Of a stretch of 64,000 bases of DNA, positions 986 through 34,567 are shown one piece after another (the stretch's first letter is position 1; the number at the start of each line of letters is the position of its first letter). Location of the stretch: assembly GCA_904419745.1 (NCBI GenBank), contig CAJFSS010000007.1:1-64000 (forward strand), in the 5' to 3' direction. The notes under the pieces were generated by a model that saw only the letters and a program-made list of their open reading frames with translations, was not told the DNA's origin and made no database searches. Origin of the DNA: Candidatus Pseudoruminococcus merdavium. GTDB lineage: Bacteria > Bacillota > Clostridia > Oscillospirales > Ruminococcaceae. A program made the translations under genes and the position numbers.

Positions 986-1031
986 GATAGCTGTGGATAA
1001 CATTTTGTCCACCTTCTTTTTTACAATTAAT

Positions 1032-1047
1032 GTTAGTCTAAACTAAC
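1032..1047. promoter_or_regulatory. Candidate operator, the inverted repeat GTTAG-TCTAAA-CTAAC, in the feoAB 5' UTR
   Basis: Perfect 5 bp inverted repeat with a 6 bp spacer, lying between the predicted promoter and the feoA start codon. The same motif is found at 33773..33788, and with one mismatch at 29519..29534. Confidence 0.45.
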
Positions 1048-1074
1048 AAAAGAGTGTGGAAGGGGAAACATCAA

Positions 1075-1308
1075 ATGACACTGGACCAAATCAAGCCGGG
1101 AGAATCCGGGACGATTACCCAAGTAGCAGGGGAAGGACTTTTGCGCCGCCGTCTGCTTGATATGGGGCTTACTCCTAAAACCCGAGTGTCCGTACGCAAA
1201 GTCGCTCCAATGGGAGATCCCATTGAACTGATGCTGCGCGGGTATGTGTTGACAATTCGCAAGGAGGAAGCTGCCAAAATTACCGTAAGAAAGGAGACAT
1301 CCCGATGA
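1075..1308 (+). CDS. feoA: ferrous iron transport protein A (FeoA)
   Basis: 77 aa with an FeoA/SH3-like fold pattern (MTLDQIKPGESGTITQVAGEG...RLLDMGLTPKTRVSV...). Ribosome-binding site GGAAGGGGAAAC. The stop overlaps the feoB start as ATGA. Confidence 0.85.
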   Translation: MTLDQIKPGESGTITQVAGEGLLRRRLLDMGLTPKTRVSVRKVAPMGDPIELMLRGYVLTIRKEEAAKITVRKETSR

Positions 1309-3410: not shown

Positions 3411-3425
3411 GGAGGGAGAAATAAA

Positions 3426-3632
3426 GTGAATCTGGCAGATTTTTTTCTCCTTATTTTGCTGCTGTCCGCTGTTGCCGCGGTCCTGTTCTTCCAACGGAAA
3501 GGTAGGCATTCCAGCGGCTGTACGGGATGTTCCGGATGCAGTGGATGTTCCGCAAAGCACGGCATCCACTGTAAAAAAGTGCCTTCTCCCCAAAAAACGG
3601 GAAAGCCTTTTCAAAACGCTTCCCGGCAGTAA
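3426..3632 (+). CDS. FeoB-associated Cys-rich small membrane protein
   Basis: 68 aa: an N-terminal transmembrane helix followed by GCTGCSGCSGCS. It lies immediately downstream of feoB, matching the 'FeoB-associated Cys-rich membrane protein' family architecture. The true C-terminus may be earlier than this stop. Confidence 0.6.
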   Translation: MNLADFFLLILLLSAVAAVLFFQRKGRHSSGCTGCSGCSGCSAKHGIHCKKVPSPQKTGKPFQNASRQ

Positions 3633-7953: not shown

Positions 7954-8540
7954 TCAGATTCCCCCTTTCCAAGTACGGATGGGGGTGTTTCCAGTACCTG
8001 ACTGTATAGCCCATCCGCCTTTTTTTTAATAATGGAGGCGGCATAGTAAATTAAAATCACATGAATTCCGTCCATCAGCCGCCGTCTAGCTCCCGGCCAG
8101 GGTTCCTGGTAATCGGAAATTTCCTTCTCCACTAGGGCAAAAAATTCTTCTTCCGACAGGACCTCTTCAAAACTCACCTTGTCTAAAATCGAACACAGGT
8201 AACAATAGAGATCCGATTCGCTGACAATATTGTCCGATGCATCCTCCGTCCTGCCGTTGATAAAAGTAAGCAGAACGCTGATATGGTCTAGTTTCATGAC
8301 ATCCCGCAGCATATTGATAATCATAATACGCGCCAGATGATCCATGCTGTAGCGTTTTTCTACCGGTCGTGCAACCCACCCCCGGTTAATCCAGTTTTGA
8401 ATTGCCGGAGTATCAAGCCCGGTAATCTCACGCACCTGTGCAAGCATCAAACCCTTTGTCACTGCGAAAATAGAAAACAAAAAGCTCCTTGCATCCTGGC
8501 CGTTTCGTTCGATGACGGTTCCCGGAAAATAGGATTTCAT
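7929..8540 (-). CDS. HTH-containing protein, MerR-like helix-turn-helix, possibly DUF1836 family. First gene of the flotillin operon.
   Basis: HTH segment LMLAQVREITGLDTPAIQNWINRGWV. The start was set at the ATG preceded by AAAGGAGGGAAGG (8540). The ORF track's upstream extension has no ribosome-binding site. Confidence 0.55.
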   Translation of the reverse strand: MKSYFPGTVIERNGQDARSFLFSIFAVTKGLMLAQVREITGLDTPAIQNWINRGWVARPVEKRYSMDHLARIMIINMLRDVMKLDHISVLLTFINGRTEDASDNIVSESDLYCYLCSILDKVSFEEVLSEEEFFALVEKEISDYQEPWPGARRRLMDGIHVILIYYAASIIKKKADGLYSQVLETPPSVLGKGESECWNGGTA

Positions 8541-20231: not shown

Positions 20232-20381
20232 TCACAACACCAACCACAATGCCTGCACCGTTCGCATTGATAATACCGTAAATTTTTCTAGGTTCTCCAT
20301 CCTGCTTTTCTTTATATAAAGAGTAAATCCTGGCCCCAGAATCAACAGTCCTATGAGGAACGCCACCGCGTTATACATCAT
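20232..20381 (-). CDS. Putative 49-aa small membrane protein, translationally coupled to the P1B ATPase: MMYNAVAFLIGLLILGPGFTLYIKKSRMENLEKFTVLSMRTVQALWLVL
   Basis: Its ATG overlaps the ATPase TGA stop as ATGA. It has one clear hydrophobic helix. Short and unverified. Confidence 0.3.
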   Translation of the reverse strand: MMYNAVAFLIGLLILGPGFTLYIKKSRMENLEKFTVLSMRTVQALWLVL

Positions 20382-22249
20382 GTTCGCTTTTTCCATTTCA
20401 GTAAAAATGCAGAGTTGATGATCACGAGGACAGATCCGGTGTTGTGGACCAGTGCGCCGACTACCGGGTTTAAGACACCGGTAATCGCCAAAATAATCGC
20501 GGCAAAGTTTAGGGCCATAGAAAACGTGAGATTGCACTTAATAGTCACCATCATCCGCTTGGAAAGCGCCAGCAGATGTGGAAGTTCCTTGACCTCATCA
20601 TCCACAAGCGCAATATCCGCCGCATCCACGGCGATATCACTGCCAACGCCGCCCATCGCAATGCCGATATTCGCTTTTTTCAGTGCCGGGGCGTCGTTGA
20701 CCCCGTCCCCAATCATACAGACGGATTGTCCCTGTTTTTGACAGCTTTCAATAAAACGAAGTTTTTCTTCCGGCAGGCAGTCCGCATGTACTTCCTCAAT
20801 GGAAAGCTGCCCGGCGATGGTTTTCGCAGCACTTTCATGATCTCCTGTGAGCAGTACCGGCGAAACGTCGAGGCCAATCAGCCTGCGCACCATTTCCCCG
20901 CTTTCCGGACGCACGGTATCCGACAGTGCAAGAAATCCCGCTGGCTGCCCATCCACTGATAAATAAATGACCGTACAGCCCCGGTCATCATATAGCTTTC
21001 CGGATTCTAGTAAAGAGGGAACGGAAGTCATCCCTTCCCTGGCAAGCAGCTTGCGGTTTCCCGCAAGAATCCGTCTACCCTGCACAACTGCCGCGACGCC
21101 CTGGCCGGGGATCATCTGGAATTCCTCTGTCTGCGGGAGTTCTTTGGAGATTTCCTGTCTACAGCAGCGCACCACCGCTTTGCCCAAAGGGTGTTCGGAA
21201 CGCTGTTCCGCCGCCGCAGCGAGCAGATAGAGTTCTTCTCTTGCCAAACCCGGCAGAATGCTCTTCACCTCGACCACCTGAGGCGTCCCATAGGTCAGCG
21301 TTCCAGTCTTGTCGAACGCAATTTTAGAGACCGAGGCAAGTCGTTCCAATGCATCGCCTTCTCGTACCAGAAACCCGTGTTTGGTTGCATTTCCAATCGC
21401 CGCCATAATGGCGGTCGGTGTTGCCAGAACCAGCGCGCAGGGACAGAAGACGACCAGAATGGTCACCGCACGGATGATCTGTCCACTGAAAATCCAGGTC
21501 AAGGCAGCTGCTGTCAGTGCGATAACAACAATCCAGGTTGCCCAGCGATCCGCCAACCCGACGATTTTCGCCTTGCCCGCGTCCGCCGACTGTACCAGCC
21601 GGATCATCCTCTGGATAGAACTGTCCTCCCCGACCTTTGTTGCCCTCATATCAAAAGAGCCGAACTGATTGACCGTCCCACTGGAAACTTCATCCCCAGC
21701 ACTTTTGTCTACCGGAAGGGATTCTCCGGTCATCACCGCCTGGTTAATGGAGGTCTGTCCGGACAGGATCACCCCGTCCACCGGGATGGTTTCGCCCGGC
21801 AGCACACGGAGAATATCCCCCACGCAAACCTGCTCCGCCGGGATCACGGTTTCCTGACCTTCAGAAATCACTCTTGCCGTGCGCGGCGTCAGGTGGACAA
21901 GTTTTTCAATCCCTGCCCGCGCTTTCGCTACGGTCAAATCTTCCAGCAGCGCGCCGAGCTGCATGATAAAGGCGACTTCACCCGCAGCAAAATCCTCCCC
22001 AATAATTACCGAGGCAATCAGTGCCAGTGAAACCAGCACGTCCGCTTTGATGTCAAAGGCGGTGACAAGCCCAATCACTGCTTCCAGGATAATCGGGATT
22101 CCACACAGAATAATCGCCACCCATGCCGCATCAAATGGGAGTGGAATCAAATCTAGCATACTGACAAGCAGCGCTATTCCGGAAATCACCAGAAAGGCGA
22201 TATCCTTTTTGGTTCCTCCAATTTCAAGAAATTCTTCCAATTTTTCCAT
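20378..22249 (-). CDS. heavy-metal-translocating P1B-type ATPase lacking an N-terminal HMA domain (CPC motif)
   Basis: 623 aa. Motifs DKTGTLT, GDGVNDAPAL and the transmembrane CPC (VVFCPCALVLATP). The protein begins directly with transmembrane helices. The last helix reads HNTGS, where Cu-type ATPases have MxxSS and Zn-type have DxG. Confidence 0.85.
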   Translation of the reverse strand: MEKLEEFLEIGGTKKDIAFLVISGIALLVSMLDLIPLPFDAAWVAIILCGIPIILEAVIGLVTAFDIKADVLVSLALIASVIIGEDFAAGEVAFIMQLGALLEDLTVAKARAGIEKLVHLTPRTARVISEGQETVIPAEQVCVGDILRVLPGETIPVDGVILSGQTSINQAVMTGESLPVDKSAGDEVSSGTVNQFGSFDMRATKVGEDSSIQRMIRLVQSADAGKAKIVGLADRWATWIVVIALTAAALTWIFSGQIIRAVTILVVFCPCALVLATPTAIMAAIGNATKHGFLVREGDALERLASVSKIAFDKTGTLTYGTPQVVEVKSILPGLAREELYLLAAAAEQRSEHPLGKAVVRCCRQEISKELPQTEEFQMIPGQGVAAVVQGRRILAGNRKLLAREGMTSVPSLLESGKLYDDRGCTVIYLSVDGQPAGFLALSDTVRPESGEMVRRLIGLDVSPVLLTGDHESAAKTIAGQLSIEEVHADCLPEEKLRFIESCQKQGQSVCMIGDGVNDAPALKKANIGIAMGGVGSDIAVDAADIALVDDEVKELPHLLALSKRMMVTIKCNLTFSMALNFAAIILAITGVLNPVVGALVHNTGSVLVIINSAFLLKWKKRT

Positions 22250-22265
22250 TGGATTCCCTCCTTTT

Positions 22266-22306
22266 ATACCTATAGGGGTATATGTTTATTATACGGGTGG
22301 GGGTAT
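22266..22306. promoter_or_regulatory. Promoter (TTGACT, 18 bp spacer, TATAAT on the minus strand) with two degenerate CsoR-like boxes (ATACCTATAGGGGTAT and ATACGGGTGGGGGTAT), upstream of the HMA-less ATPase
   Basis: The half-sites ATACC and GGGTAT match the CsoR boxes upstream of csoR at 25424..25465. One box lies in the promoter spacer and the other just downstream of the -10 element. Confidence 0.45.
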
Positions 22307-22408
22307 TGATAAGTCAAGGGAAACATTTGTACAGCTAAATCCTTTGGCGAACAAAAAATCTCCCGGAACATGCAAATCGTGTCCGGGAGATTTCTTCTGG
22401 GTATCTCT

Positions 22409-25045
22409 TTATTCTGCAGTACAGCTGACCGGGGTGTACCCCGCTTCAGTGACCGCATCCATCAAAACTTTGTCATCCACCTCTTTGGAAAGGGAGACTG
22501 TCGCCTTTTTGTTCTCCAAATCCACAACCGCCTCGCTTACGCCATCGACAGCGGCAAGGGCCTTTTGTACATGTGCCTGACAATGTGCACACATCATGCC
22601 GTCTACAACCAATACTTTTTTCATAAAGATCATTCCTTTCTCATGTTCCACCGGTTGTGCACCGGTTTCAAGGGGATTATTATCTTCCACCGCCGGCAAT
22701 ACTGCCGGGATTTCAGCATGGGGATTGTGCGTATCCTGTCCCTTCTTTTTGAAAAAGCGCAGGCGCAACGCATTCGTAACAACGCAGACGGAACTCAGGC
22801 TCATCGCCGCGGAGCCAATCATCGGGCTCAATCGCAGGCCAAAAGCCGGGAACAGGGCGCCCGCCGCCACCGGAATGCCGAGGATGTTGTAAAAGAATGC
22901 CCAGAACAGGTTCATGTGGATGTTGCGCACCACCGCCCGACTGAGATCAATCGCGTTTGCCACATCATCCAGGGAATCCTTCATCAAAACCACGTCCGCG
23001 GATTCAATTGCAATGTCCGTGCCTGCGCCGATAGCAATACCAATGTCCGCACGGGTCAGGGCCGGAGCGTCGTTGATGCCGTCACCGACCATGGCAACCT
23101 TGTGACCCTGCTCCTGCAAGGCACGGATGTTGGCCTCTTTTTCCGTAGGCAGTACGTCCGAGATGGCCCGCTCAATACCGAGCTCTTTGCGGATCGCTTC
23201 CGCCGTCACCCGGTTGTCCCCGGTCAGCATGACAACATGTAATCCCATCTGAGCAAAGCGTTTGATAGCTGCACGGCTGGTATCGCGGATGGTATCCGCT
23301 ACTGCGATGATCCCCACGAGTTTTCCACCGCGTGCAAAGAGTAACGGAGTCTTGCCCTCCTGCGCCAGGCGCGCTGTCTGCGCGCGTGCCTCTTTTGAAG
23401 CACCATCTTCCGTTAGCAAATGATTTTCCTCCAAAAACGCAATATTTCCGGCAAAATATTCCTGACCGCCCACTTTTGCACGGATTCCACGTCCGGAAAC
23501 CGCTTCAAATTCCTCTGCCGCAGGCAAAGAGAGGTTTTCCAGCTTTGCACGTTCCACAACCGCCTGGGCCAGCGGATGTTCGCTGCCCATCTCCGCAGCG
23601 GCGGCTTCTTTCAAAAATTCCTGCTCGCTCAAAGTGGAATCCAGTACCACAATGTCCGTGACGGACGGGTGCCCAGAGGTGATCGTCCCGGTTTTGTCCA
23701 GGACAATCGTGTCAATGTTATGCAGATTTTCCAAACTCTCCGCAGATTTTATCAAAATTCCCATCTCCGCCGCCTTTCCGGTTCCGACCATGATGGCGAC
23801 GGGTGTGGCAAGCCCCAGTGCGCAAGGGCAGGAGATGACCAGTACAGCAATGGCATTGGACAGGGCAAATTCAAACCCCTGACCGGCAAGCATCCAAATC
23901 ACCGCGGTTAAAATCGCAATCCCAATGACGACCGGGACAAAAATCCCGCTAACACGGTCTGCCAGGCGCGCAATCGGTGCTTTGGAGTTGCCCGCTTCGT
24001 CCACAAGGCGGATGATCTGTGCCAGCGTGGTATCTTCTCCGACTTTGGACGCTTGAAAACGGAAGGTACCGTTTTTATTGATAGTTGCAGAGATTACCGT
24101 ATCCCCGGCTTTTTTCTCCACAGGGATACTCTCTCCGGTAATCGCCGCCTGATCCACATATCCGTGACCTTCAGTAACAACACCGTCCACTGGAATTCCT
24201 TCTCCTGGACGGATTACCAGGATATCCCCGGCGACGACCTGCTCCGCGGGGATGATCTGTTCTTCTCCGTTTCGGAGGACAACCGCTGTTTTGGGAGCAA
24301 GATCCACCAGCTTGCCGAGCGCATCCGAAGTTTTGGATTTGGAACGTGCTTCAAGATATTTTCCAACCGTAACCAGCGTCAGGATCATGGCCGCGGATTC
24401 AAAATACAGTGCATGGGCGTATTCGTGGACGACCGCCATGTCTCCGTGTCCAAACCCATAAGCCATGCGAAACATGGCGAACAACCCATAAACCAGGGAC
24501 GCCCCGGAACCGATTGCCACCAGCGAATCCATGTTGGGGGCACGGTGGAACAGGGATTTCAGACCATTTTGAAAAAAGTGCCGGTTGATAAACAGGATGG
24601 GCACTGTAATGATCAGCTGCAAAAGGGCGTTGACAAGCGTGTTCTCCATGCCAACCAAAAAGGATGGCATCGGCAGGTTCATCATGCCTCCCATCGCAAC
24701 ATACATCAGGGGGATCAGCAGGATAATGGAGGCCACAAGCCGGTGTTTCATGCTTTTCTGGCTTTCTTCCGCCTGTTCCTTTCTCATCTGCCATTCGCTA
24801 CGGAATCCCCCTTCTTTTGCCCGTGCCTGGTGTTCCAGAGAAGATGCGCCGTAACCGATTTCCCTGACCGCACCGATAATGCTCTGCGGATCAAGAGCGG
24901 ATTCATCATAGGTCACCGTCATCTGGTTGGCAAGCAGGCTGACGTTGACGTCTTCAACCCCATCGAGTTTTTGTACACACCGGGTAACATTGGCCTGACA
25001 GGCCGCACAGGTCATCCCGGTCACATTATACTTTTCTGTTTTCAA
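22409..25045 (-). CDS. copA: copper-translocating P-type ATPase CopA with an in-frame C-terminal CopZ-like HMA domain
   Basis: 878 aa. N-terminal HMA domain GMTCAACQ, transmembrane CPC, and the Cu-type signatures YN...MSLSS in the last helices. After the last helix comes a linker of about 40 aa and a 71-aa HMA domain (MKKVLVVDGMMCAHCQAH...) with no stop codon in between. Confidence 0.85.
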   Translation of the reverse strand: MKTEKYNVTGMTCAACQANVTRCVQKLDGVEDVNVSLLANQMTVTYDESALDPQSIIGAVREIGYGASSLEHQARAKEGGFRSEWQMRKEQAEESQKSMKHRLVASIILLIPLMYVAMGGMMNLPMPSFLVGMENTLVNALLQLIITVPILFINRHFFQNGLKSLFHRAPNMDSLVAIGSGASLVYGLFAMFRMAYGFGHGDMAVVHEYAHALYFESAAMILTLVTVGKYLEARSKSKTSDALGKLVDLAPKTAVVLRNGEEQIIPAEQVVAGDILVIRPGEGIPVDGVVTEGHGYVDQAAITGESIPVEKKAGDTVISATINKNGTFRFQASKVGEDTTLAQIIRLVDEAGNSKAPIARLADRVSGIFVPVVIGIAILTAVIWMLAGQGFEFALSNAIAVLVISCPCALGLATPVAIMVGTGKAAEMGILIKSAESLENLHNIDTIVLDKTGTITSGHPSVTDIVVLDSTLSEQEFLKEAAAAEMGSEHPLAQAVVERAKLENLSLPAAEEFEAVSGRGIRAKVGGQEYFAGNIAFLEENHLLTEDGASKEARAQTARLAQEGKTPLLFARGGKLVGIIAVADTIRDTSRAAIKRFAQMGLHVVMLTGDNRVTAEAIRKELGIERAISDVLPTEKEANIRALQEQGHKVAMVGDGINDAPALTRADIGIAIGAGTDIAIESADVVLMKDSLDDVANAIDLSRAVVRNIHMNLFWAFFYNILGIPVAAGALFPAFGLRLSPMIGSAAMSLSSVCVVTNALRLRFFKKKGQDTHNPHAEIPAVLPAVEDNNPLETGAQPVEHEKGMIFMKKVLVVDGMMCAHCQAHVQKALAAVDGVSEAVVDLENKKATVSLSKEVDDKVLMDAVTEAGYTPVSCTAE

Positions 25046-25060
25046 AAGAGATCCTCCCCT

Positions 25061-25402
25061 CTATTTAAGCCTTTTTATCAGTTCCACGGCTTCCTCAATC
25101 ACCTGGGTATTCCCTTTCTGCACTTCCTCAACCACACAGGTTTCCAGGTGACTCTGCAAAACCAGATACCCAAAGGATTGAAGCGCGCTTTCCACTGCGG
25201 CAACCTGCATCAGGATATCCCCACAATAGCGGTTATCATCCAGCATTTTACTGATACCGCCAAGCTGCCCGACCATCCGTTTGATACGGTTTTGCAGCAG
25301 GGTCAGTTCCCTTCCACTGCGGGGCGTCGCCTTGTGGTGACAGGGACATTCGCGCTGCTGCCCGGGGGCATTTGTCTTCTTTTCCTGTTTTTCCATCTGC
25401 AA
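25061..25402 (-). CDS. csoR: CsoR-family metal-sensing transcriptional repressor
   Basis: 113 aa with a CsoR/RcnR helical-bundle pattern (C-H-C metal ligands; ...YCGDILMQVAAVESAL...). Encoded directly upstream of copA. Confidence 0.85.
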   Translation of the reverse strand: MQMEKQEKKTNAPGQQRECPCHHKATPRSGRELTLLQNRIKRMVGQLGGISKMLDDNRYCGDILMQVAAVESALQSFGYLVLQSHLETCVVEEVQKGNTQVIEEAVELIKRLK

Positions 25403-25770: not shown

Positions 25771-26460
25771 ATGAATCATATTCCAAACCCAGATGTCGTT
25801 TTCCCAAACGAATATGGAACTACCTGTTTTCTGAAAAACGTAATTACCGCCCCGAATATTATCGTTGGGGACTATACCTATTATGACGACCCAGTAGATC
25901 CAACCGGATTCGAACACAATAATGTCCTGTTCAACTGGCCGGAATTTGGAGATCGTCTCATAATTGGGAAATTCTGTGCCATTGCAAGCGGGGTACAGTT
26001 TATTATGGGGAGTGCAAACCATCGGATGAACAGTATCAGCACCTATCCCTTCCACGTCTTTGGCGGAATATGGGAAGAAAATACCCCTCCCCATCTCTCC
26101 CAGCTCCCCTTTAAAGGGGATACAGTCATCGGAAATGACGTCTGGATTGGACGGGAAAGCGTGATTTTACCCGGCGTCCATGTAGGCGACGGGGCTATCA
26201 TCGCCGCAAATTCCGTGGTTTCCAAAGATATAGAGCCATATACTCTTGTGGGCGGAAATCCGGCGAAACCAATCCGGAAGCGCTTTGATGAAGAACTGGT
26301 TTCCATGCTCCTTACTCTGCGTTGGTGGGACTTTCCCCCGGAAAAACTGGCCGATTTCCTGCCTTTCCTGTGTGACAGTGATCTTTCCAAAGTAAAAACC
26401 ATCATTGAAAACCTGATCAATCAATCTTCCGTAGAACCTAATTCTACAAAGCTGCTGTAA
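25771..26460 (+). CDS. vat: Vat-family streptogramin A O-acetyltransferase (xenobiotic acetyltransferase with hexapeptide repeats)
   Basis: 229 aa starting at MNHIPNP, with the ribosome-binding site AAAGGAGAA. Strong resemblance to Vat(D)/Vat(B), including GDYTYYD, IGKFCAIASGV...GSANHRM, GNDVWIGRESVILPGVHVGDGAIIAANSVV and LVGGNPAKPIRKRF. Confidence 0.85.
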   Translation: MNHIPNPDVVFPNEYGTTCFLKNVITAPNIIVGDYTYYDDPVDPTGFEHNNVLFNWPEFGDRLIIGKFCAIASGVQFIMGSANHRMNSISTYPFHVFGGIWEENTPPHLSQLPFKGDTVIGNDVWIGRESVILPGVHVGDGAIIAANSVVSKDIEPYTLVGGNPAKPIRKRFDEELVSMLLTLRWWDFPPEKLADFLPFLCDSDLSKVKTIIENLINQSSVEPNSTKLL

Positions 26461-26548
26461 AATTTCCAGAAAAGGACTGCAACCCCAGCAGAAATCGTTA
26501 CAAATATTGGCTTTTTTAAATAATAAAACATATGGCAAGCCAAAAATC

Positions 26549-26592
26549 AAAATTTCCCCTTCCAGCAGTAGTACTGGAAGGGGAAATTTTGA
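26549..26592. terminator. Bidirectional terminator: a 16 bp perfect stem, aaatttccccttccag...ctggaaggggaaattt
   Basis: A long perfect hairpin with flanking A- and T-runs, lying between the convergent vat (+) and the SCA-type ATPase (-). Confidence 0.85.
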
Positions 26593-26598
26593 TCCCAT

Positions 26599-28710
26599 TT
26601 ACAGGATTCGTTGCTGTTTCAACTTTTCCTTCGCATCTTTATGCAGCAGGTTTTCCATACTTTTTAAGCTGATGGCAAGCGTTGAGGCATTGTGCAACAA
26701 GGCAGATGTAGTGGGTTGTATCATTCCACCAACCCCCAGGGCAATCAATGTCCCGTTAATTGCCAAAATGGATTTATAATTTCGGTCGATCCGGCGCATC
26801 ATAGCGGTACTCAGCCGTCGTAGCGTGAGTAACTCCCGTAAATTGTCCGCCCCGATCGTGATATCGGCAATTTCCCGTGCAATCTCCGCCCCATCGCTGA
26901 TGGCGATTCCAACGTCTGCCGCGGACAGCGCCGGAGAATCATTGATCCCGTCCCCAATCATGACAACTCCGCTGCCCCGCTCCCGCTCTTTCAGGACAAA
27001 GTTTGCCTTATCTTCCGGCAGGACTTCAGAATAATATTCGTCCACGCCAACTCTTGCCGCAATAGCCGAAGCCGTGCGCTCGCTATCCCCTGTCATCATG
27101 ACTATTTTCCGGAACCCCTCCGTCTTCAGTTGCGCGATGACTTCAATTGCTTCTTCCCTTAGAGGGTCTTCAATCAGGATCACCGCTGCAAGTTCTCCAT
27201 CCATAGCCAGATAAAGATGGGAAAACTCTGTCGGAAGCCGCTCAAAGCGTTCCTGATATTCCTCCCGTATCTTACAGCCTTCATCTTCAAAAACAAAATG
27301 ATGGCTCCCGATAATAACCCGTTTGTCCCCGATGTAGGAAGTAATACCGTGCGCGACAATATAATCCACTTTGGAGTGCATTTCCTCATGCTCTAAATGC
27401 TGTTGCTGCGCCGCACGCACCACCGCTTTGGCCATGGAATGCGGAAAATGTTCTTCCAGGCAGGCCGCCACTCTCAGCATCTCTTGTGCGTTAAAATCCC
27501 CGAACGGCACGACCTCTTTTACGGTAGGCTGCGCCTTTGTAAGCGTCCCGGTTTTATCAAAGACGATGGTGGACGCGCAAGACAATGCCTCCAGATACTT
27601 TCCGCCTTTGACAGTAATATGATGGGCACTTGCTTCCCGGATAGCGGAAAGCACTGTAATTGGCATAGCAAGCTTTAGCGCGCAGGAAAAATCCACCATC
27701 AGGACAGACAGTGCCTTTGTCAGATTGCGTGTAAACAGCCCGACTAAGAGCGTCCCAAGAAAAGTATAGGGCACCAGACGATCTGCCAAGTGCTCAGCTT
27801 TCCCCTCCACGGCGGACTTAAGTTTTTCCGATTCCTCAATCATGGTGATAATTTTTTCATAGCGGGTCGAACCAGAGACCTCTTTGACCCGGATGGTAAG
27901 CTCTCCTTCTTCTACGACCGTACCCGCATAGGCATAGCTGTCCACTTCTTTTTTCACCGGAAGGCTTTCGCCAGTCAGAGAAGCCTGATTAACCATCGCC
28001 TCTCCTCCTACCACAAGCCCGTCAAAGGGGATCAGATTGCCCATATGGACTACCACTTCATCGGCGGGCTGTATTTCCGAGGCGTCTACCAGGATTTCCT
28101 GTCCCTCCCGCTTAAGCCAGACCTTGCCCACATTTAAGGACATACTGCGTGCCAGATCCCCGACGGATTTCTTATGCGTCCATTCTTCCAGAATTTCTCC
28201 AATTCCAAGCAGGAACATCACAGAACTAGCCGTACGGAAGTCTCCGCGCACAATGGAAATTCCAATTGCCGTTGCATCCAACACAGGGACTTCCAGTTTC
28301 TTTTTGCACAGACACTGAAAACCATGGCGGAGATATTTGAGAGATTTAAACACAATATACCCTGCCCGGACCGGAGTGGGCAGGAACTTGGTAAACAGGT
28401 GCAAAACCGCTTTCCCGATCAGCTTTTCCCGGTATTTGGCATTCAGTCTACGCCCGGAACTTTCCAACACCGCCTGTGGCACGTCCACTTTTTCATACCG
28501 GAACCCTTTCAGGGCAATTATCAGCTGTTCCCGGCTTCCGGTATAAAAAATCGCTGCATCCGCTGTCTGTTCGTAAACTTTCGCCTTGGTGACATAGCTG
28601 AGGCTTTCCAGAAAATAAAGCAGGGTATCCGCCTGTTCAAAAGACATCTTCGCCTGTACCATATGAATACGGATACGCCCGGACATCTCATGTTTGATAA
28701 CAAATTTCAC
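26599..28710 (-). CDS. P1B-type ATPase with an 'SCA' transmembrane motif (P1B-6-like, substrate uncharacterised)
   Basis: 703 aa. Motifs DKTGTLT and GDGINDSPAL. The transmembrane helix carries SCA (MVDFSCALKLAMP) where CPC is usual. The N-terminal domain has a ferredoxin-like fold but lacks CxxC. Confidence 0.85.
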   Translation of the reverse strand: MKFVIKHEMSGRIRIHMVQAKMSFEQADTLLYFLESLSYVTKAKVYEQTADAAIFYTGSREQLIIALKGFRYEKVDVPQAVLESSGRRLNAKYREKLIGKAVLHLFTKFLPTPVRAGYIVFKSLKYLRHGFQCLCKKKLEVPVLDATAIGISIVRGDFRTASSVMFLLGIGEILEEWTHKKSVGDLARSMSLNVGKVWLKREGQEILVDASEIQPADEVVVHMGNLIPFDGLVVGGEAMVNQASLTGESLPVKKEVDSYAYAGTVVEEGELTIRVKEVSGSTRYEKIITMIEESEKLKSAVEGKAEHLADRLVPYTFLGTLLVGLFTRNLTKALSVLMVDFSCALKLAMPITVLSAIREASAHHITVKGGKYLEALSCASTIVFDKTGTLTKAQPTVKEVVPFGDFNAQEMLRVAACLEEHFPHSMAKAVVRAAQQQHLEHEEMHSKVDYIVAHGITSYIGDKRVIIGSHHFVFEDEGCKIREEYQERFERLPTEFSHLYLAMDGELAAVILIEDPLREEAIEVIAQLKTEGFRKIVMMTGDSERTASAIAARVGVDEYYSEVLPEDKANFVLKERERGSGVVMIGDGINDSPALSAADVGIAISDGAEIAREIADITIGADNLRELLTLRRLSTAMMRRIDRNYKSILAINGTLIALGVGGMIQPTTSALLHNASTLAISLKSMENLLHKDAKEKLKQQRIL

Positions 28711-28814
28711 TTAAGATTCCTCCACTGGTTAGACGTCCTGCTGGAAAATAATTTTCCTCCAGCAGGAAAACGGGGCCTTGCCTTCCCCACAGGCTAGCCC
28801 CGAAACCATCATTC

Positions 28815-29093
28815 TTATTCTGCCTCGTTGTCGTTTTCTTCAACAATCCTTGCCGCTTCCTCAGCAGCTCTTTTCTCATTGACTTGCTTAGCTTCCGCAA
28901 AGATATCCTCTGCATTTTCCTGAATAGTGGTAGCGGTTTTCATCACGGATTCCTTTGCACGCAGAGCGGCTGCGGTACACTGGACGTATGCTTTCTTTGC
29001 ATCTTTGCTGGAAAGAAGTTTGATTCCAGCCGTACCAAACAGAACGCCTCCTAAAAACAAACCTACATTTTTCATTGTGCCAATTTTAAACAT
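28815..29093 (-). CDS. YtxH-like small protein: an N-terminal hydrophobic helix followed by a coiled-coil
   Basis: 92 aa starting at MFKIGTMKNVGLFLGGVLFGTAGIKLL, with the ribosome-binding site AAGGAGGAGA. Lies upstream of the SCA ATPase on the same strand. Confidence 0.55.
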   Translation of the reverse strand: MFKIGTMKNVGLFLGGVLFGTAGIKLLSSKDAKKAYVQCTAAALRAKESVMKTATTIQENAEDIFAEAKQVNEKRAAEEAARIVEENDNEAE

Positions 29094-29273
29094 TATGGTC
29101 TCCTCCTTTATTTGTGTCTGTAACCGGTATAAAAAAGCATGATGAAACATACTAGTGCCGCAAAGGCCCAAAAACGGTGCCGTTTCATGTCTCCAATTCC
29201 TCCCTTATTCAAGGATGTTCTCGGTACTCCGTGATTTTCCTGCGCCTTGGATTGTGTACAACAGGATCAAGGG

Positions 29274-29483
29274 CTAGACGAGTATTTTACCGGCCATTTC
29301 CCTGCTGATGGCAACCCGGGAGTTTTTTATGTTTACTATCAAGTTACCGCCGAGTGTAGAAACTACCGTAACTCTCGCCCCAACAACAAAACCGATATCC
29401 TGTAAATGGGATTTCAATCCCTCAGAGCCTCCCACTTTCTTAATAACCTGTTCGATCCCTGCAGGAGCCAGTGTCAACGGCAT
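29274..29483 (-). CDS. free-standing FeoA-family (SH3-like) protein
   Basis: 69 aa with the FeoA domain pattern: MPLTLAPAGIEQVIKKVGG...LQDIGFVVGARVTVV...IVNIKNSRVAISREMAGKILV. Confidence 0.75.
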   Translation of the reverse strand: MPLTLAPAGIEQVIKKVGGSEGLKSHLQDIGFVVGARVTVVSTLGGNLIVNIKNSRVAISREMAGKILV

Positions 29484-29518
29484 ATTTCCTCATCTCCTGT
29501 CCTCATCACCGCCCAAAA

Positions 29519-29534
29519 GTTATCTATAGCTAAC
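29519..29534. promoter_or_regulatory. Candidate operator GTTAT-CTATAG-CTAAC upstream of the feoA-like gene, one mismatch from the GTTAG-N6-CTAAC motif
   Basis: It lies inside a larger palindrome AAAGTTATCTATAGCTAACTTT, 36 to 51 bp upstream of the start codon. There is an extra GTTAG half-site at 29548..29552. Confidence 0.4.
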
Positions 29535-29680
29535 TTTTGGTTCTAAAGTTAGTCTTGCACAACCACTTGCGCTATTATATCACCGTTCAAAAAACTTGTC
29601 AATGCAGAGAAAATATCCTCAAAACTCTGTTTTTTAGTCAGATATTATATGCAGTATAAACAATTTTCGTCTTAGAGTTT

Positions 29681-31396
29681 TTATTTCTTTATAGTTTTAG
29701 AACATTCTTGGACTGTCTCCTCTATGGCAGTACCGTTTTCCAAACGGATAATCCGATTGCAACCGGTCAGGGTGGACATTCTATGGGAAATAATTAAAAG
29801 CGTTTTATCCGGATATTCTTCCCGCAAGGTTTTGAGCAACTCTTTTTCGTGGAGGACATCTAAACTGCTGGTCGGTTCGTCCATAACAACCACGTCGGGA
29901 TCCACCAGCATAACTCTGGCAATACCGACTCTTTGGCGTTCGCCTCCGGAGAGCCTTGCTCCCATCTGCCCCATCTGGGTCTGATAGCCATCCGGCAGCG
30001 TGGAAATGAAATCATGCAGGCCGGCTCTTCTGGCGGCATTGCGAATTTCCTTCATCGAAGCCTCCGGTTTACCAAGCGCGATATTTTCCGCAATGGTTCC
30101 ATTAAAAAGAAACGTATCCTGTTCCAGTACTGCTATTCTGCGGTGCAATTCCTGGAGGGAGAGTTGTTGTACAGGGATTCCGTTCATTTTTATGGAACCG
30201 CTCACCGGGTTCCAAAACCTCAGCAATAAACGGAAAACCGTTGATTTTCCCACACCGCTTTCCCCAACAATTCCAACCTTATCTCCACGTTTAATTACAA
30301 GGTTCATCCTTTTCAGGATATCCTTACTGTTTTCCGCATAGTGAAACGACACATTTTCAAACGAAATGCTCTCAATTGGGCCAAGTGTTCTCGGATGTTC
30401 TGTCTCTGTAATTTCAGGCCTGGTATCTTCAATGATAAATAACCGTTCTGCAGCGGCAAATGCTTCCAGCAAGCTGGAAACCACCATAGTCAATGAAAAA
30501 GTAGAGGAAAAGGACGCCACGGCAACAAACGAGATAACAACAGTCCCCACTGGATTTTGCGAACCCGAACCGGCTAGATAGGTGGCCACCGCCAAAATCA
30601 GGATGCGGGCAAGATACACAAAAAAGGTCGGCGTAGAGGAAACCGTCTGCCGGTGCAGGGTCAGACCATGTGCCGCACGATTGACCTTTTTATTCTGTTC
30701 CTGTACTCTTGCAAGCTGATCGTGTCCATACCCAAAAATCTGGATATCCTTAATTCCATAGACGCTTTCCAGAACAAGCGACTTGATTTCCCCAAGGCGC
30801 GTCCGGTAACGCATCCCAATAGGTCTGCCCGCTTTCATAGCAATCAGAGGAAGCACGATACTGATAATTAGATAAATTGGAAGCAAAACTGCTGCATACA
30901 ATGGATGGAAAAAAAGCGCCAAGCCCAGTGTGACACAGGGTAGCAGGATAACGGTAAACATTGGGCCAATAGTATGAGCGAAAAAATACTCAATCGTCTC
31001 AATATCCGAAACTGCAACATTCAGGATATCTCCTTTTTTCCTGTCCATCAGGCAGGCTGGCGCAAGTTTGCGGATAGTTTCAAACAGGTGGATTCGCATG
31101 CTGGCAAGTAACTTATAGGCGCCCGCATGAGAGGCCACGCCTTCCAAATATCGGCAGATAACAATCATAAGTCCGCAGACCACCATCAGAATTCCAAACA
31201 GGATGGGAGAACCGGAAGTGAGTTTTCCCGCACAGGACAGGATTAACAGTGCGCCAAATCCCATCAAACCCATATGCGACAGGTTTCCAAAAACACTCGC
31301 CAAAGTGGAAACAGTCAAATACCCTTTGACTGGGGAAGCAATTTTTAAAAGCCGTCCTACCATTTCCCGAATGGAATATTGGAATTTCTGTCTCAT
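29681..31396 (-). CDS. ABC exporter, fused permease and ATPase half-transporter (subunit 2 of a heterodimer)
   Basis: 571 aa. An N-terminal domain with six transmembrane helices, then Walker A GESGVGKST, the signature LSGGERQRV and Walker B VVMDEPTS. Confidence 0.85.
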   Translation of the reverse strand: MRQKFQYSIREMVGRLLKIASPVKGYLTVSTLASVFGNLSHMGLMGFGALLILSCAGKLTSGSPILFGILMVVCGLMIVICRYLEGVASHAGAYKLLASMRIHLFETIRKLAPACLMDRKKGDILNVAVSDIETIEYFFAHTIGPMFTVILLPCVTLGLALFFHPLYAAVLLPIYLIISIVLPLIAMKAGRPIGMRYRTRLGEIKSLVLESVYGIKDIQIFGYGHDQLARVQEQNKKVNRAAHGLTLHRQTVSSTPTFFVYLARILILAVATYLAGSGSQNPVGTVVISFVAVASFSSTFSLTMVVSSLLEAFAAAERLFIIEDTRPEITETEHPRTLGPIESISFENVSFHYAENSKDILKRMNLVIKRGDKVGIVGESGVGKSTVFRLLLRFWNPVSGSIKMNGIPVQQLSLQELHRRIAVLEQDTFLFNGTIAENIALGKPEASMKEIRNAARRAGLHDFISTLPDGYQTQMGQMGARLSGGERQRVGIARVMLVDPDVVVMDEPTSSLDVLHEKELLKTLREEYPDKTLLIISHRMSTLTGCNRIIRLENGTAIEETVQECSKTIKK

Positions 31397-33150
31397 TTCT
31401 CTTCACCTACTTCCCTGTGTTCTTCCAGATTAGCCTGTTCCGTTACCAATTGGTAATACAAGCCATGGTTTTGCATTAAATCTTCGTGCCGGCCGCTTTC
31501 AGAAATTTTTCCGCCCGACAGGACATAAATACAGTCCGCATTCTGAATCGTGGACAGCCTGTGTGAAATGATGATAAGCGTCCTTGTCATGGCAAGCCTG
31601 TCCACACAACTCCAGATTTCCTGCTCACTCTGGATATCCACACTGGAAGTTGCCTCGTCAAAAATAATATATTCCGCCTTGCAGAGCAGGGCGCGGGCAA
31701 TTCCGATCTTTTGGCGTTGCCCTCCGGAAAGTTTTCCCCCGCTGTCTCCGACATCGGTATCAAGACCATCCGGCAGTGTATCCACCCAGTTTTTTAACCG
31801 TACCTGTTGCAGTGCCTCCAGCATTTCTTCTTTGGTGGCATCCTTTTTAGCTATCCTCAGGTTGTCCGCAATTGTGCCGGAGAAAATACTGACGCTCTGG
31901 GGAACCATAATAATCCGTTTCCTAAGCTGTTCTGGGGTAAAACTGTAATAATCTTTTCCTTCGAGTGTGATGCGCCCATTCGATGGGTCAAAAAAACGCA
32001 TCAAAAGCCCCGCGATAGTGCTTTTTCCACAGCCGGATAATCCGGCAAGAGCGGTTACCTTTCCTTTCGGGATGGTCAGGGAAACATCGGTTATCGCGGC
32101 GTTACGCCCTGTATAAGAATGTGAAACATGTTCCATTCGGATTCCTTCATAGACATCCTTGTCTATTGGCAAGGCGGGATCATAAGGGCGAGAGGTATCG
32201 ATATCAAGCAGATTTTCCACTTTTTCTGCTGCTGATACCCCGCTGAGCGCAGTATGGGTCGCATTCATCAGTTGGCGCACCGAGTCAAAAAAGCTATAAG
32301 AGAGCAGCAAAATCATCAGAGCAGAGGTAAAGAGAATGTCCCCCTGCAAAAGTCCCGCACTGACAATTCCCATCGCAATCAGGATGGAACAGTAAATCAT
32401 ACCATCCGTGAGCAGGAAGGATGAAAAATTCACCTTCATAACATCCATGATTTTCCGGTTAAAAGCATCTGCCTTTTTGCTAAGAACTTTAGTCCGTTCA
32501 CCGTCCTGTTCATAGAGTTTAAAAGTCGTCAATCCCTGTACGCTTTCCAAATAGTAGCCAGTTAAATCCTCCATGGAGTTCCAGTATTCGGTTTTTAGCG
32601 TTTCAATTTTAGAACGGAAAATATTGTTGATAGGAAGCAGAACAAATGATACGGCAAACAGCAGAATTGCCACTGACAAAGAAGAGTTCTTTAATTGAAA
32701 AAACAGGTAAATGGGAGCGCACATGCAATAAATCAACCCCGGAAGGTATTGACTATAATAGGTCTGCATGGATTCCACCCCATCCACAGAGGATGTTATC
32801 GCAGAAACAGGCCCGATTCTCTCAATGTTCCCGGCATCCAGCTCCAGTACCTTGGAAAAAATTTTTGTACGCAGGGCAGTCCGTGCCTTTGCAGTACAGC
32901 GGTACTCCAACTCACCGCGTAATAGTTCAGAACAGAATGTAACTGCTGCAATCACGAGCGCGGACAGAATAGCAGAACCGGCTGTTTCTATTGTTACGGA
33001 TGGGGAATCAATATTTCCAAGGAATCCGGAAATGGTTTTTGCAAACGCTGTAATTCCAATTAATGTAACCAGTTTGACAATAACAATAGCAAAAATCCAT
33101 CCCCACAGCCCTTTTGCCAGCCGCAAGAGTGTTTTGTTAAGTAAAAGCAT
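31393..33150 (-). CDS. ABC exporter, fused permease and ATPase half-transporter (subunit 1)
   Basis: 585 aa. Walker A GLSGCGKST, signature LSGGQRQK, Walker B IIFDEATS. Its stop overlaps the start of the downstream paralog. Confidence 0.85.
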   Translation of the reverse strand: MLLLNKTLLRLAKGLWGWIFAIVIVKLVTLIGITAFAKTISGFLGNIDSPSVTIETAGSAILSALVIAAVTFCSELLRGELEYRCTAKARTALRTKIFSKVLELDAGNIERIGPVSAITSSVDGVESMQTYYSQYLPGLIYCMCAPIYLFFQLKNSSLSVAILLFAVSFVLLPINNIFRSKIETLKTEYWNSMEDLTGYYLESVQGLTTFKLYEQDGERTKVLSKKADAFNRKIMDVMKVNFSSFLLTDGMIYCSILIAMGIVSAGLLQGDILFTSALMILLLSYSFFDSVRQLMNATHTALSGVSAAEKVENLLDIDTSRPYDPALPIDKDVYEGIRMEHVSHSYTGRNAAITDVSLTIPKGKVTALAGLSGCGKSTIAGLLMRFFDPSNGRITLEGKDYYSFTPEQLRKRIIMVPQSVSIFSGTIADNLRIAKKDATKEEMLEALQQVRLKNWVDTLPDGLDTDVGDSGGKLSGGQRQKIGIARALLCKAEYIIFDEATSSVDIQSEQEIWSCVDRLAMTRTLIIISHRLSTIQNADCIYVLSGGKISESGRHEDLMQNHGLYYQLVTEQANLEEHREVGEEK

Positions 33151-33327
33151 ATAATTTTCCCCCTGTCTGTTTTTTCAGTAAAAGCGTTCCCCTGTATCCC
33201 GATACAATTTTCTTTCTGCCACAGGGAAAAGCGGGAAGCAAACCGCTGCACCGTCTTTCAATTTTCAATATTGACCCATGATGTCCTAGGCCCATCCTAA
33301 TTACTTTCACAAACGGACCACAGGATA

Positions 33328-33723
33328 CTAGGTATTTTGCTCTGACGGGCCGACTCCATTTTTCAGAAAATATTGTTTCAGCGCTTCAAAGCTCTCCGCA
33401 CTAAGGGCATGCTCCATCCGACAGGCGTCCTTCATGGCAATATCCTTGTCTACACCTAGGCTGCACAGGACATCGGAAAACAGAAGATGCCTCTCATAAA
33501 TGGTTTCCGCCAGTGTCCTTCCCTGTTTCGTGAGGGAAATCTCATGGTTCTCTCCCATCTGAATATATCCACCGTTTCTCAGGTTTTTCATCGCTACGCT
33601 GACGCTCGCTTTAGAGACATTCAGTTGCGCCGCAATATCCACCGAGCGTACTGCGGCGCCGGTACGGTTTTGTAAAATCAAAATCATTTCCAGATAATCT
33701 TCACCGGACTCCATAATTTTCAT
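33328..33723 (-). CDS. MntR/DtxR-family metal-dependent transcriptional regulator (no C-terminal SH3 domain)
   Basis: 131 aa. It aligns with B. subtilis MntR across the HTH and the dimerisation/metal-binding domain (SGEDYLEMIL..., ...ERHLLFSDVL..., ...MEHALS...). Confidence 0.8.
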   Translation of the reverse strand: MKIMESGEDYLEMILILQNRTGAAVRSVDIAAQLNVSKASVSVAMKNLRNGGYIQMGENHEISLTKQGRTLAETIYERHLLFSDVLCSLGVDKDIAMKDACRMEHALSAESFEALKQYFLKNGVGPSEQNT

Positions 33724-33772
33724 GTTTTGCCTCCCTTCATAAATTCTATATTATTTGTCTTATTCGCCCTCG

Positions 33773-33788
33773 GTTAGATACAGCTAAC
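33773..33788. promoter_or_regulatory. Candidate autoregulatory operator GTTAG-ATACAG-CTAAC upstream of the MntR-like gene
   Basis: Perfect 5-6-5 inverted repeat, 50 to 65 bp upstream of the regulator start codon. It overlaps the likely -35 region, and a TAATAT -10 element lies downstream. Confidence 0.45.
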
Positions 33789-34006
33789 TACAAGAGAAAA
33801 AATACAGGAATTCCCCACAAATTGTCGGAAAAATCCAATTAAATAATATTTTACTATAATCTCTCTTTTCGGTCAAGTCAGTTTGCTTTCCCTCTAAAGA
33901 CTTCAGCCGGTAGCAGAAGATGATAGACAATCCTCTGGTTCCTATATCACCTTTTCTTTCATTTTCCTTTATTTTTTATCACAAAAATTGAACAACTCCT
34001 GAAGAG

Positions 34007-34042
34007 ACAAAAAAGCAGCTGGCATTGTTTTGCCAGCTGCTT
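34007..34042 (-). terminator. Intrinsic terminator of thiW: GCAGCTGGCA-ttgttt-TGCCAGCTGC followed by a T-run on the minus strand
   Basis: A 10 bp perfect stem, 19 bp after the thiW stop, followed by a U-run in the transcript. Confidence 0.8.
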
Positions 34043-34060
34043 TCTGTGCGCTTTCTCCTT

Positions 34061-34567
34061 TTATCGTCCGGAAGGAGACGGAACCAGACGGTCAAGGACA
34101 TGAGTCTTTTTCAGGGCATACAAAATAGCGATAGAAATTGTTGACCCCCCAACAGTACTTACCATAAATGGAATGACATAGGCAAACAGTGCAGTCTCCT
34201 GTGTCATGACAAAAGCAGCAATGGGATATGCCGCCAATGCGCCAAGGAATCCCGTGCCGATAACCTCTCCCAAATAGGCAAGAGGAAGGCGCTTAGTATA
34301 GCGGTACAGCATGCCACAGCAAAACGCACCGACCATACTTCCAGGGAACGCAAGCAAGCTCCCGGTACTCGTCATTACACGGATAAGCGAGGTCACAAAC
34401 GCCATCCCCAATGCATACCACGGCCCCAAAATCACGCCTGCCAGGACGTTCACCATATGCTGAATGGGAAAACACTTGGAAGCCCCAACCGGAATATAAA
34501 ATGCTGAGCATACCACACCCAGCGCAATCAGGATTCCTGCCATTGTCAGTTTTTTTGTCTTACTCAT
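34061..34567 (-). CDS. thiW: ECF-transporter S component ThiW (thiazole/thiamine-precursor transporter)
   Basis: 168 aa small polytopic membrane protein (MSKTKKLTMAGILIALGVV...) immediately downstream of a TPP riboswitch. Confidence 0.7.
   Translation of the reverse strand: MSKTKKLTMAGILIALGVVCSAFYIPVGASKCFPIQHMVNVLAGVILGPWYALGMAFVTSLIRVMTSTGSLLAFPGSMVGAFCCGMLYRYTKRLPLAYLGEVIGTGFLGALAAYPIAAFVMTQETALFAYVIPFMVSTVGGSTISIAILYALKKTHVLDRLVPSPSGR

Follow-up and report, generated by a model that had tools for sequence, protein, structure and literature searches.

The 64,000-nucleotide stretch of Candidatus Pseudoruminococcus merdavium analysed here (contig CAJFSS010000007.1; below, the window) carries four consecutive genes, all on the minus strand, for a FeoA protein, a 26-aa micro-protein, a small membrane protein of the DUF6110 family and a P-type ATPase of the P1B-6 subfamily (Table 1). 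As shown by the promoter at 29602 and the terminator at 26546, they form a single predicted transcription unit, which we call the fez operon. A preliminary description of the window had placed the genes of FeoA, the small protein and the 703-aa ATPase correctly and on the right strand, and promoter and terminator were found around them; it had overlooked the fourth gene, a micro-ORF (open reading frame) at 29108..29188. Judging from sequence features and from analogy with characterised loci, we read the operon, at a probability of about three in four, as a ferrosome gene cluster of the fezAB type, that is, as one more example of a known system, in which case the pump is no orphan. Its lineage-specific features are predicted DtxR-type control, a displaced feoA gene and the linked micro-gene.

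The ATPase and its small membrane partner

The ATPase matches the Pfam families E1-E2_ATPase (E = 7e-38) and Hydrolase (E = 3e-29) and scores 489 bits against a cutoff of 346 with TIGR01525, the NCBIfam model of heavy-metal P-type ATPases. In its fourth transmembrane helix (TM4), residues 340-344 read DFSCA, within the longer string DFSCALK; the whole segment 338-349 is VDFSCALKLAMP. DKTGT is found at residue 385 and LLHNAST at residues 671-677, the latter including the HNAST of TM6 (H673-N674-A-S-T677), and N652 lies in the preceding helix, TM5. The resulting spacing is N-x20-HN, while the literature quotes N-x18-HN for the subfamily. At the N-terminus, GRIRIH (G11-R12-I-R14-I-H16) constitutes an arginine-rich motif of the RxR type. 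With D[Y/F]SCA, HNxxT and RxR all present, the earlier assignment of the pump to the P1B-6 type stands.

The motifs are widely shared. We examined 150 homologues, namely the best cluster representatives (clustering at 50% identity), whose identities to the query are as low as 33%: D[YF]SCA is carried by 107 of them, HNxx[TS] by 119 and RxR near the N-terminus by 114. The SCA motif had been described as rare, which does not hold among gut anaerobes. In an alignment of 73 pump sequences, D340 and C343 are invariant, and R12, R14, S342, A344, N652, H673, N674 and T677 are nearly so. Invariance of D340 and C343 and near-invariance of S342 and A344 across a large family rule out that SCA is a degenerate or misread CPC; its location in the metal-coordinating helix had been described correctly.

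In an AlphaFold2 model of the full-length pump (predicted local distance difference test, pLDDT, 85.8), D340-F-S-C-A sits where the fourth membrane helix is kinked. The model contains eight long helices, the first two of which (residues 86-108 and 112-135) carry eight and four charged residues, respectively, and have low hydropathy. Helices were counted from the model together with charge and hydropathy, with no dedicated topology predictor; read in this way, the model shows six remaining membrane-like helices, and the amphipathic pair at 86-135 would replace the two extra helices of classical P1B pumps. Residues 1-68 are predicted to fold as beta-beta-alpha-beta-beta-alpha (pLDDT 93.8). Many of the structural neighbours listed for this domain are HMA domains (MerP, ATP7B repeats, HAH1 and CopZ), with target-normalised TM-scores of 0.6-0.69 and a root-mean-square deviation of ~2 Å; the structure search gave no match at E ≤ 0.001, and the match to Pfam HMA_2 is sub-threshold (E = 0.004). 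The earliest cysteine of the pump is residue 133, and its N-terminal domain contains neither CxxC nor a His-rich metal-binding domain, so that "ferredoxin-like and cysteine-free", as it had been called, is a fair description. No P1B-6 pump was found among solved structures, and the PDB entries that match best are pumps of the CopA, CadA and ZntA types.

The nucleotide-binding domain of the pump has a feature of its own. Residues 417-471 (~27298..27462, minus strand) form a run of histidines and glutamates (CLEEHFPHS, HxExH, VAHG, GSxHF) that is nearly invariant across P1B-6. It exceeds the usual HP dipeptide and could be a cytoplasmic metal-sensing or regulatory site.

The gene directly upstream of the pump encodes a member of DUF6110 (E = 3e-36) and not, as had been proposed, a YtxH-like protein: the YtxH profile (PF12732) yields E = 0.1 and 13.5 bits against a cutoff of 37.5. 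Gene callers choose the ATG at 29093; a longer version of the ORF, of 118 aa, begins at an upstream TTG. The protein has an N-terminal membrane helix with a tandem GxxxG motif, GLFLGGVLFG, at residues 11-20, and a cytoplasmic, helical, acidic tail (EENDNEAE at the C-terminus) with no His-rich metal motif. In 120 DUF6110 homologues, GxxxGGxxxG is kept in 116, and a C-terminal His motif was found in none. Membership in PacL/DUF1490 was rejected, as the scores are 14-17 bits against a cutoff of 28.4 (E = 0.007 to 0.04) and the C-terminal His motif is missing. Residues 6-33 (28995..29078, minus strand) also give a weak, sub-threshold match (E = 0.037) to FXYD (ATP1G1/PLM/MAT8), a family of single-pass regulators of the Na,K-ATPase; the match is probably due to chance, though the architecture is analogous.

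According to the literature, DUF6110 proteins are typically encoded alongside P1B-6 pumps. We scanned genomes with the TM4 region of the pump as the seed and retained 80 species-level loci, which represent the closest relatives and are all Lachnospiraceae-like; the nearest named ones are Lachnospiraceae such as Lientehia, Mediterraneibacter and Faecalicatena. In 78 of these species, the gene immediately upstream of the pump gene, and on its strand, encodes DUF6110, and the other two loci end at a contig edge; under a stricter distance rule, it is upstream in 70 of 75. Within 8 kb of the pump, Fur is encoded in 21 of the 80 loci, FeoB in 19, FeoA in 18 and a DtxR-family protein in nine, and any of these in 30. 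FeoA stands directly before the DUF6110-ATPase pair only in the window and in a relative that is 90% identical to it (locus L008), while two more loci have the order FeoA-Fur-DUF6110-ATPase. Iron context is enriched around the pump, and DUF6110 is its conserved partner; FeoA is not a core partner. Of the two neighbours singled out in the preliminary description, the small protein is therefore conserved with the pump, and FeoA is not.

Promoter, operator and metalloregulator

The promoter of the fez operon is the sole perfect sigma-70 site within 26300..34100, and L008 has a near-identical one. Within the operon, the spacer between the DUF6110 and ATPase genes is predicted to fold with a minimum free energy of -44.7 kcal/mol (z = -3.7), and none of 200 shuffled sequences was as stable. 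Read by eye and not folded, the spacer of L008 shows two successive inverted repeats, the first of them GC-rich. Loci of the Mediterraneibacter type have no hairpin spacer, and their DUF6110-ATPase gap is ~6 nt. The hairpins may tune the protein ratio towards high FezA:FezB, via transcription attenuation or mRNA stabilisation.

The palindrome AGTTAG-N6-CTAACT occurs three times in the window, and two of the copies, at 29518 and 33772, agree with the earlier suggestion that the fez operon has an operator in common with the nearby regulator gene. The count of a loose operator pattern alone is not significant; for a stricter 17-mer, none of 100 shuffles reached the observed count. In the relatives, the palindrome (with at most two mismatches) is intergenic beside a DtxR-family gene or before feoA in nine of the 12 loci examined: it is upstream of feoA in L008, L002, L016, L053 and L079, and upstream of the regulator gene in L089 and L014 (positions 3169 in L002; 2306 in L016; 1808 and 1940 in L053; 2476 in L079; 3742 in L089; 5137 and 9373 in L014). 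Also in L014, the operator precedes a CydDC-like ABC pair. The palindrome looks like the operator of a Lachnospiraceae subfamily of DtxR/MntR proteins, which precedes feoA(B), the regulator gene and CydDC-like ABC genes and, here, the fez operon. The shared operator implies that the fez operon would be co-regulated with ferrous-iron uptake, and the copy in the leader of the regulator gene, near which there is a promoter-like site (33848..33876), likely serves autoregulation.

The likely repressor at the predicted operator is the 131-aa protein of the DtxR/MntR family, encoded just beyond the operon together with two ABC exporters, as had been described. Among the NCBIfam models MntR fits it best, yet all MntR and DtxR equivalogs are below cutoff (for MntR, 95 bits vs 153). 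In an alignment with Bacillus subtilis MntR, the regulator keeps D8, E11, H77, E102 and H103 and has a cysteine at E99, which we take to correspond to C102 in the numbering of DtxR. An alternative is a manganese system, with a regulator of the MntR kind that responds to Mn2+ and a pump for Mn2+ in place of Fe2+. The best PDB matches of the regulator, like its best NCBIfam matches, are MntR proteins, and the two retained residues D8 and E11 are of the MntR type; moreover, Feo systems have been tied to manganese import in some bacteria, and the P1B-6-like CtpC was once proposed to be a manganese transporter. We nevertheless consider manganese very improbable, given that no MntR model reaches its cutoff, that the cysteine in place of E99 is presumably the one found in iron-sensing DtxR, that the pump pair is near Fur in 21 and near FeoB in 19 of the 80 relatives, and that characterised ferrosomes hold iron phosphate. 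Of the two ions put forward in the preliminary description, Fe2+ or Mn2+, the former is the most plausible substrate.

Other types of control were considered as well. Between 29094 and 29700, the best match to the 19-bp Fur-box consensus has eight mismatches, which is the background level, and a Fur-like site with four mismatches at 8310 was dismissed, as it lies inside an ORF. No fur gene was found in the neighbourhood within the window. Riboswitch control, e.g. by a Mn or NiCo riboswitch, was rejected, since an Rfam scan of 26400..34200 gave nothing above chance.

As the operator is common to feoAB and the fez operon, derepression under iron scarcity is favoured over a detoxification pump induced by excess. 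Pumps of the latter kind are the P1B-4 ATPases for Fe2+/Co2+ efflux, e.g. PfeT of Bacillus subtilis, which also move Fe2+ out of the cytosol; these have SPC in TM4, are not known to have a DUF6110 partner, are induced by iron excess and detoxify at the cell membrane.

Table 1. Features of the fez operon, its regulator and the feo operon in the window
Feature	Position	Strand	Details
Sigma-70-type promoter	29574..29602	-	TTGACA, 17-nt spacer, TATAAT, TG extension; 12/12 consensus
Predicted operator, AGTTAGCTATAGATAACT	29518..29535	.	AGTTAG-N6-CTAACT palindrome; feoA leader, ~40 nt downstream of the -10 box
feoA, free-standing	29274..29483	-	69 aa; PF04023, E = 7e-15
Micro-gene, unannotated	29108..29188	-	26 aa, MKRHRFWAFAALVCFIMLFYTGYRHK; own GGAGG; DUF6219-like
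fezA-like gene, DUF6110	28815..29093	-	92 aa; PF19605
DUF6110-ATPase spacer	28711..28814	-	104 nt; two stable hairpins predicted
fezB-like gene, P1B-6 ATPase	26599..28710	-	703 aa; GTG start 8 nt after GGAGG
Intrinsic terminator	26546..26593	-	20-bp stem, then T-run; begins 6 nt past the ATPase stop
CydC/CydD-like ABC exporter gene	29681..31396	-	between regulator gene and fez operon
CydC/CydD-like ABC exporter gene	31393..33150	-	between regulator gene and fez operon
DtxR/MntR-family regulator gene	33328..33723	-	131 aa, no SH3 domain; Pfam Fe_dep_repress and Fe_dep_repr_C
Second copy of predicted operator	33772..33789	.	leader of regulator gene
feo operon	1031..3632	+	
Third copy of predicted operator	1031..1048	.	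immediately upstream of feoA-feoB
feoA of feo operon	1054..1308	+	
feoB	1305..3410	+	
Cys-rich membrane protein gene	3426..3632	+	

Comparison with ferrosome and efflux systems

Ferrosomes are lipid-bounded iron granules, for which the fez genes, including fezB, are required in Desulfovibrio magneticus and Shewanella putrefaciens; Rhodopseudomonas palustris forms them via its own fez operon (Grant and Komeili, bioRxiv 10.1101/2020.01.10.902569). The same study identified FezB, a P1B-6 ATPase, and small membrane proteins as ferrosome-associated; it based the FezB group on D[Y/F]SCA, HNxxT and an arginine-rich motif at the N-terminus, and it reported a GxxxG membrane protein in nearly all clusters. 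In Clostridioides difficile, FezA, a membrane protein, and FezB are needed for ferrosomes, are Fur-repressed and matter for colonisation; deletion of fezB in a fur mutant abolishes ferrosomes, and Escherichia coli expressing C. difficile FezA and FezB shows ferrosome foci. The mineral is a vivianite-like ferrous phosphate. The P1B-6 group had been described as having no experimental assignment; its role in ferrosomes, as FezB, is now known, and what remains of that statement is that we found no direct metal-transport assay in the literature.

Similar to C. difficile FezA/FezB (CD630_05920/05910), the window encodes a GxxxG membrane protein directly upstream of a P1B-6 ATPase of ~700 aa. By published motif tables, the C. 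difficile FezB homologue BG47_10390 has the same DFSCALK in TM4 and the same HNAST in TM6, and its N-terminal string is FYIKHEIRGRIRFDL, compared to FVIKHEMSGRIRIHM in the window (KHEIRGRIRF and KHEMSGRIRI, respectively). The membrane motif of the neighbouring C. difficile protein BG47_10395, IFLGGVLFGTVGVK, is the same as that of the window protein, LFLGGVLFGTAGIK, at 11 of 14 positions. The tables of the ferrosome paper also list FezB homologues with like strings from Blautia, Roseburia, Dorea and Anaerostipes, and the DUF6110 string of the window falls in GxxxG cluster 2-2, together with BG47_10395 and Lachnospiraceae proteins (VFAAGVLFGTAGIK and similar). Both hosts are gut anaerobes of the Firmicutes, and in both the cluster is tied to the iron regulon; Fur-repressed fezAB of C. 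difficile follows the same logic of derepression under scarcity as is proposed for the window. The two loci differ in the length of FezA, listed as 131 aa in C. difficile and 92 aa here, in the regulator, which is Fur there and likely of the DtxR/MntR type, with its operator and no Fur box, here, and in the FeoA gene that heads the operon of the window.

FezABC of D. magneticus and the six-gene fez operons of S. putrefaciens and R. palustris are more distant. They share with the window D[Y/F]SCA, HNxxT, the R-rich N-terminus and a GxxxG membrane partner, and their pumps have six predicted membrane helices, the number tentatively read from the model of the window pump. On the other hand, their pumps carry DYSCA and HNGTT-type strings, D. 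magneticus FezA belongs to similarity cluster 2-4 and not 2-2, and their clusters include FezC (an HMA domain plus two transmembrane helices) and other proteins that are absent from the window. In the Mediterraneibacter-type loci, the gene order is a DtxR-like regulator, feoA(A)B, one or two membrane-anchored HMA-domain proteins, fur, the micro-ORF, DUF6110 and the ATPase (L002 6502-7318, L007 4184-5353 and similar); these HMA-domain proteins, of which the window has none, may act as FezC.

If the window operon works as the characterised homologues do, the regulator would be metal-free when iron is scarce, and the fez operon and feoAB would be derepressed together. The FezB-type pump would then use ATP to drive Fe2+ from the cytosol into the lumen of small vesicles, which the FezA-type DUF6110 protein would help to shape or organise. 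In the lumen, iron would precipitate with phosphate, and the ferrous-phosphate store formed in this way would buffer the cell between scarcity and excess. The regulation, pumping, vesicle and mineral steps are all inferred from these homologues.

Several points weigh against a ferrosome cluster. No ferrosome has been observed in any Lachnospiraceae, we found no in vitro Fe2+ transport or Fe2+-stimulated ATPase activity in the literature for any P1B-6 pump, and a 2026 review calls the subfamily still poorly understood. Similarity to the C. difficile proteins was judged from published motif strings of 5 to 15 residues, supplemented by Pfam family and synteny. Control appears to be exerted by a DtxR/MntR-type protein, as opposed to Fur in C. 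difficile, and the ligand set of this regulator is a hybrid, such that sequence alone does not settle between iron and manganese. Finally, DUF6110 is related to mycobacterial PacL proteins, which are scaffolds of plain efflux pumps, and the fez operon adjoins csoR-copA and a CPC-type efflux ATPase.

The last two points also speak for the main rival, a PacL-like, effluxosome-like platform, where the DUF6110 protein would be a scaffold or stabiliser, the ATPase would detoxify the cell by exporting excess Fe2+, Zn2+ or another divalent metal over the cytoplasmic membrane, and no organelle would be formed. It differs from the ferrosome reading only in the storage compartment, transport out of the cytosol being identical in both models. 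PacL1/CtpC of Mycobacterium tuberculosis resembles the window pair in gene order, the gene of a P1B pump with HN in TM6 being preceded closely by that of a small single-pass membrane protein whose cytoplasmic part is helical. DUF6110 has been described as PacL-like and the DUF1490 and DUF6110 families as related, with which the weak DUF1490 similarity noted above agrees; PacL1 is needed for CtpC-mediated zinc resistance, and the csoR-copA genes and the CPC-type P1B ATPase make the neighbourhood look like one of metal resistance. However, CtpC has CPC where the window pump has SCA, the C-terminal metal motif of PacL1, DLHDHDH, is missing from the DUF6110 protein of the window, as are His motifs from all 120 homologues, and the function of PacL1/CtpC is zinc efflux and resistance, not storage. 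Moreover, an operator common to feoAB and a repressor-type DtxR-family gene fits induction by scarcity, not by excess, and the sole tested members of the exact pump-plus-partner type make ferrosomes. Hence, we regard an efflux platform as unlikely.

Ferrosomes are a recently recognised bacterial organelle, which in C. difficile aids colonisation under host iron restriction. A ferrosome cluster in the window would add genes of ferrosome-type machinery in commensal gut Lachnospiraceae, which is relevant to the competition for iron between commensals and pathogens. For annotation, SCA-type P1B pumps would become FezB-like and DUF6110 proteins FezA-like, neither of them orphans. The remaining leads are modest, namely, the linked 26-aa micro-gene and the DtxR-type operator common to feoAB.

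The micro-gene, feoA and neighbouring genes

The micro-gene lies between feoA and the DUF6110 gene, and contig gene callers skip it in five of the five neighbourhoods examined. It encodes one hydrophobic helix with basic ends and aligns to Pfam DUF6219 over positions 1-25 of the family (E = 2e-6). In the consensus, MK.H[KR]FWAWA..C..M.FYTGYKHK, residues H4, T21 and G22 are invariant, and C14, Y23 and H25 nearly so. All 75 distinct DNA versions have the stop at codon 27, and the entropies of the three codon positions are 0.58, 0.31 and 1.32 bits; because of the uniform stop and this pattern, which is a clear coding signature, we take the micro-ORF to be coding.

It immediately precedes DUF6110 in the window, in each of the four other types of neighbourhood that were examined and in 25 of the 80 genome loci; in one further locus it lies downstream of the ATPase (copies at L002 7525-7599, L006 5545-5622, L008 5537-5614 and many others). 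The linkage was also examined in reverse, in 80 metagenome contigs seeded by the pattern MKxH[KR]FWA. DUF6110 is immediately downstream of the micro-ORF in 72 of the 75 contigs that have room for it. Of the 52 contigs long enough to include the pump, 50 encode it.

A literature search for DUF6219 found no mention. Reviews name the C. difficile operon fezXAB, and the micro-gene may equal FezX; if so, only the regulatory rewiring would be new. A bolder proposal, which we put forward tentatively and think rather doubtful, is that the ferrosome module of the Lachnospiraceae type comprises three genes, the first of which would be that of the micro-protein, a required subunit or assembly factor of FezA/FezB, and that this lineage has moved from Fur control to a DtxR-type regulon with feoAB and the CydDC-like exporter.

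The FeoA profile PF04023 spans the full 69-aa protein of the fez operon and scores 55.4 bits against a cutoff of 23. The window also has a feo operon with the third copy of the operator, which is a probable regulon partner of the fez operon; its FeoB-associated Cys-rich membrane protein is sub-threshold in Pfam (25.4 bits against a cutoff of 27). The FeoA of the fez operon most likely belongs to the shared iron regulon and may serve FeoB and not be a dedicated subunit of the pump. As to FeoA only, we lean towards a member of the Feo uptake system that was displaced and arrived with its operator, in which case it would not be informative on the pump substrate. It is 52% identical to the first FeoA of the feoA-feoA-feoB operons of relatives, which carry the operator before that gene, while the feo operon of the window itself has only a FeoA of the second type. 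Directly upstream of the pump pair it occurs solely in the closest relative besides the window, Fur intervening in the two other cases, and FeoA-domain proteins counted in fez clusters in the tables of the ferrosome paper are deltaproteobacterial proteins of 232-258 aa, unlike the one described here. Still, the arrangement is preserved in the 90%-identical relative, and about one species in four encodes FeoA or FeoB close to the pump, so some coupling of uptake and storage remains conceivable.

The regulator gene probably shares a transcript with the two CydC/CydD-like ABC exporter genes, whose link to the pump is uncertain. The pair is orthologous in L008. Related pairs stand by the DUF6110-ATPase genes in Lientehia hominis and in two Faecalicatena contorta loci (L014 9738-13152, L018 3049-6494 and L052 11096-12790, the contig piece of L052 covering just one subunit). 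As these are the only three further species with a clearly related pair beside the pump, the exporters were rejected as a conserved core partner, and no functional tie of CydDC-like exporters to ferrosomes was found in the ferrosome literature examined.

Downstream of the fez operon, a cluster on the minus strand (20378..25402) encodes CsoR, a CopA of 878 aa that has two HMA domains, and a P1B ATPase of the CPC type with 623 aa. Between this csoR-copA cluster and the fez operon, the opposite strand carries a hexapeptide acyltransferase gene, and three P1B pumps of different subtypes are thus encoded within 9 kb.

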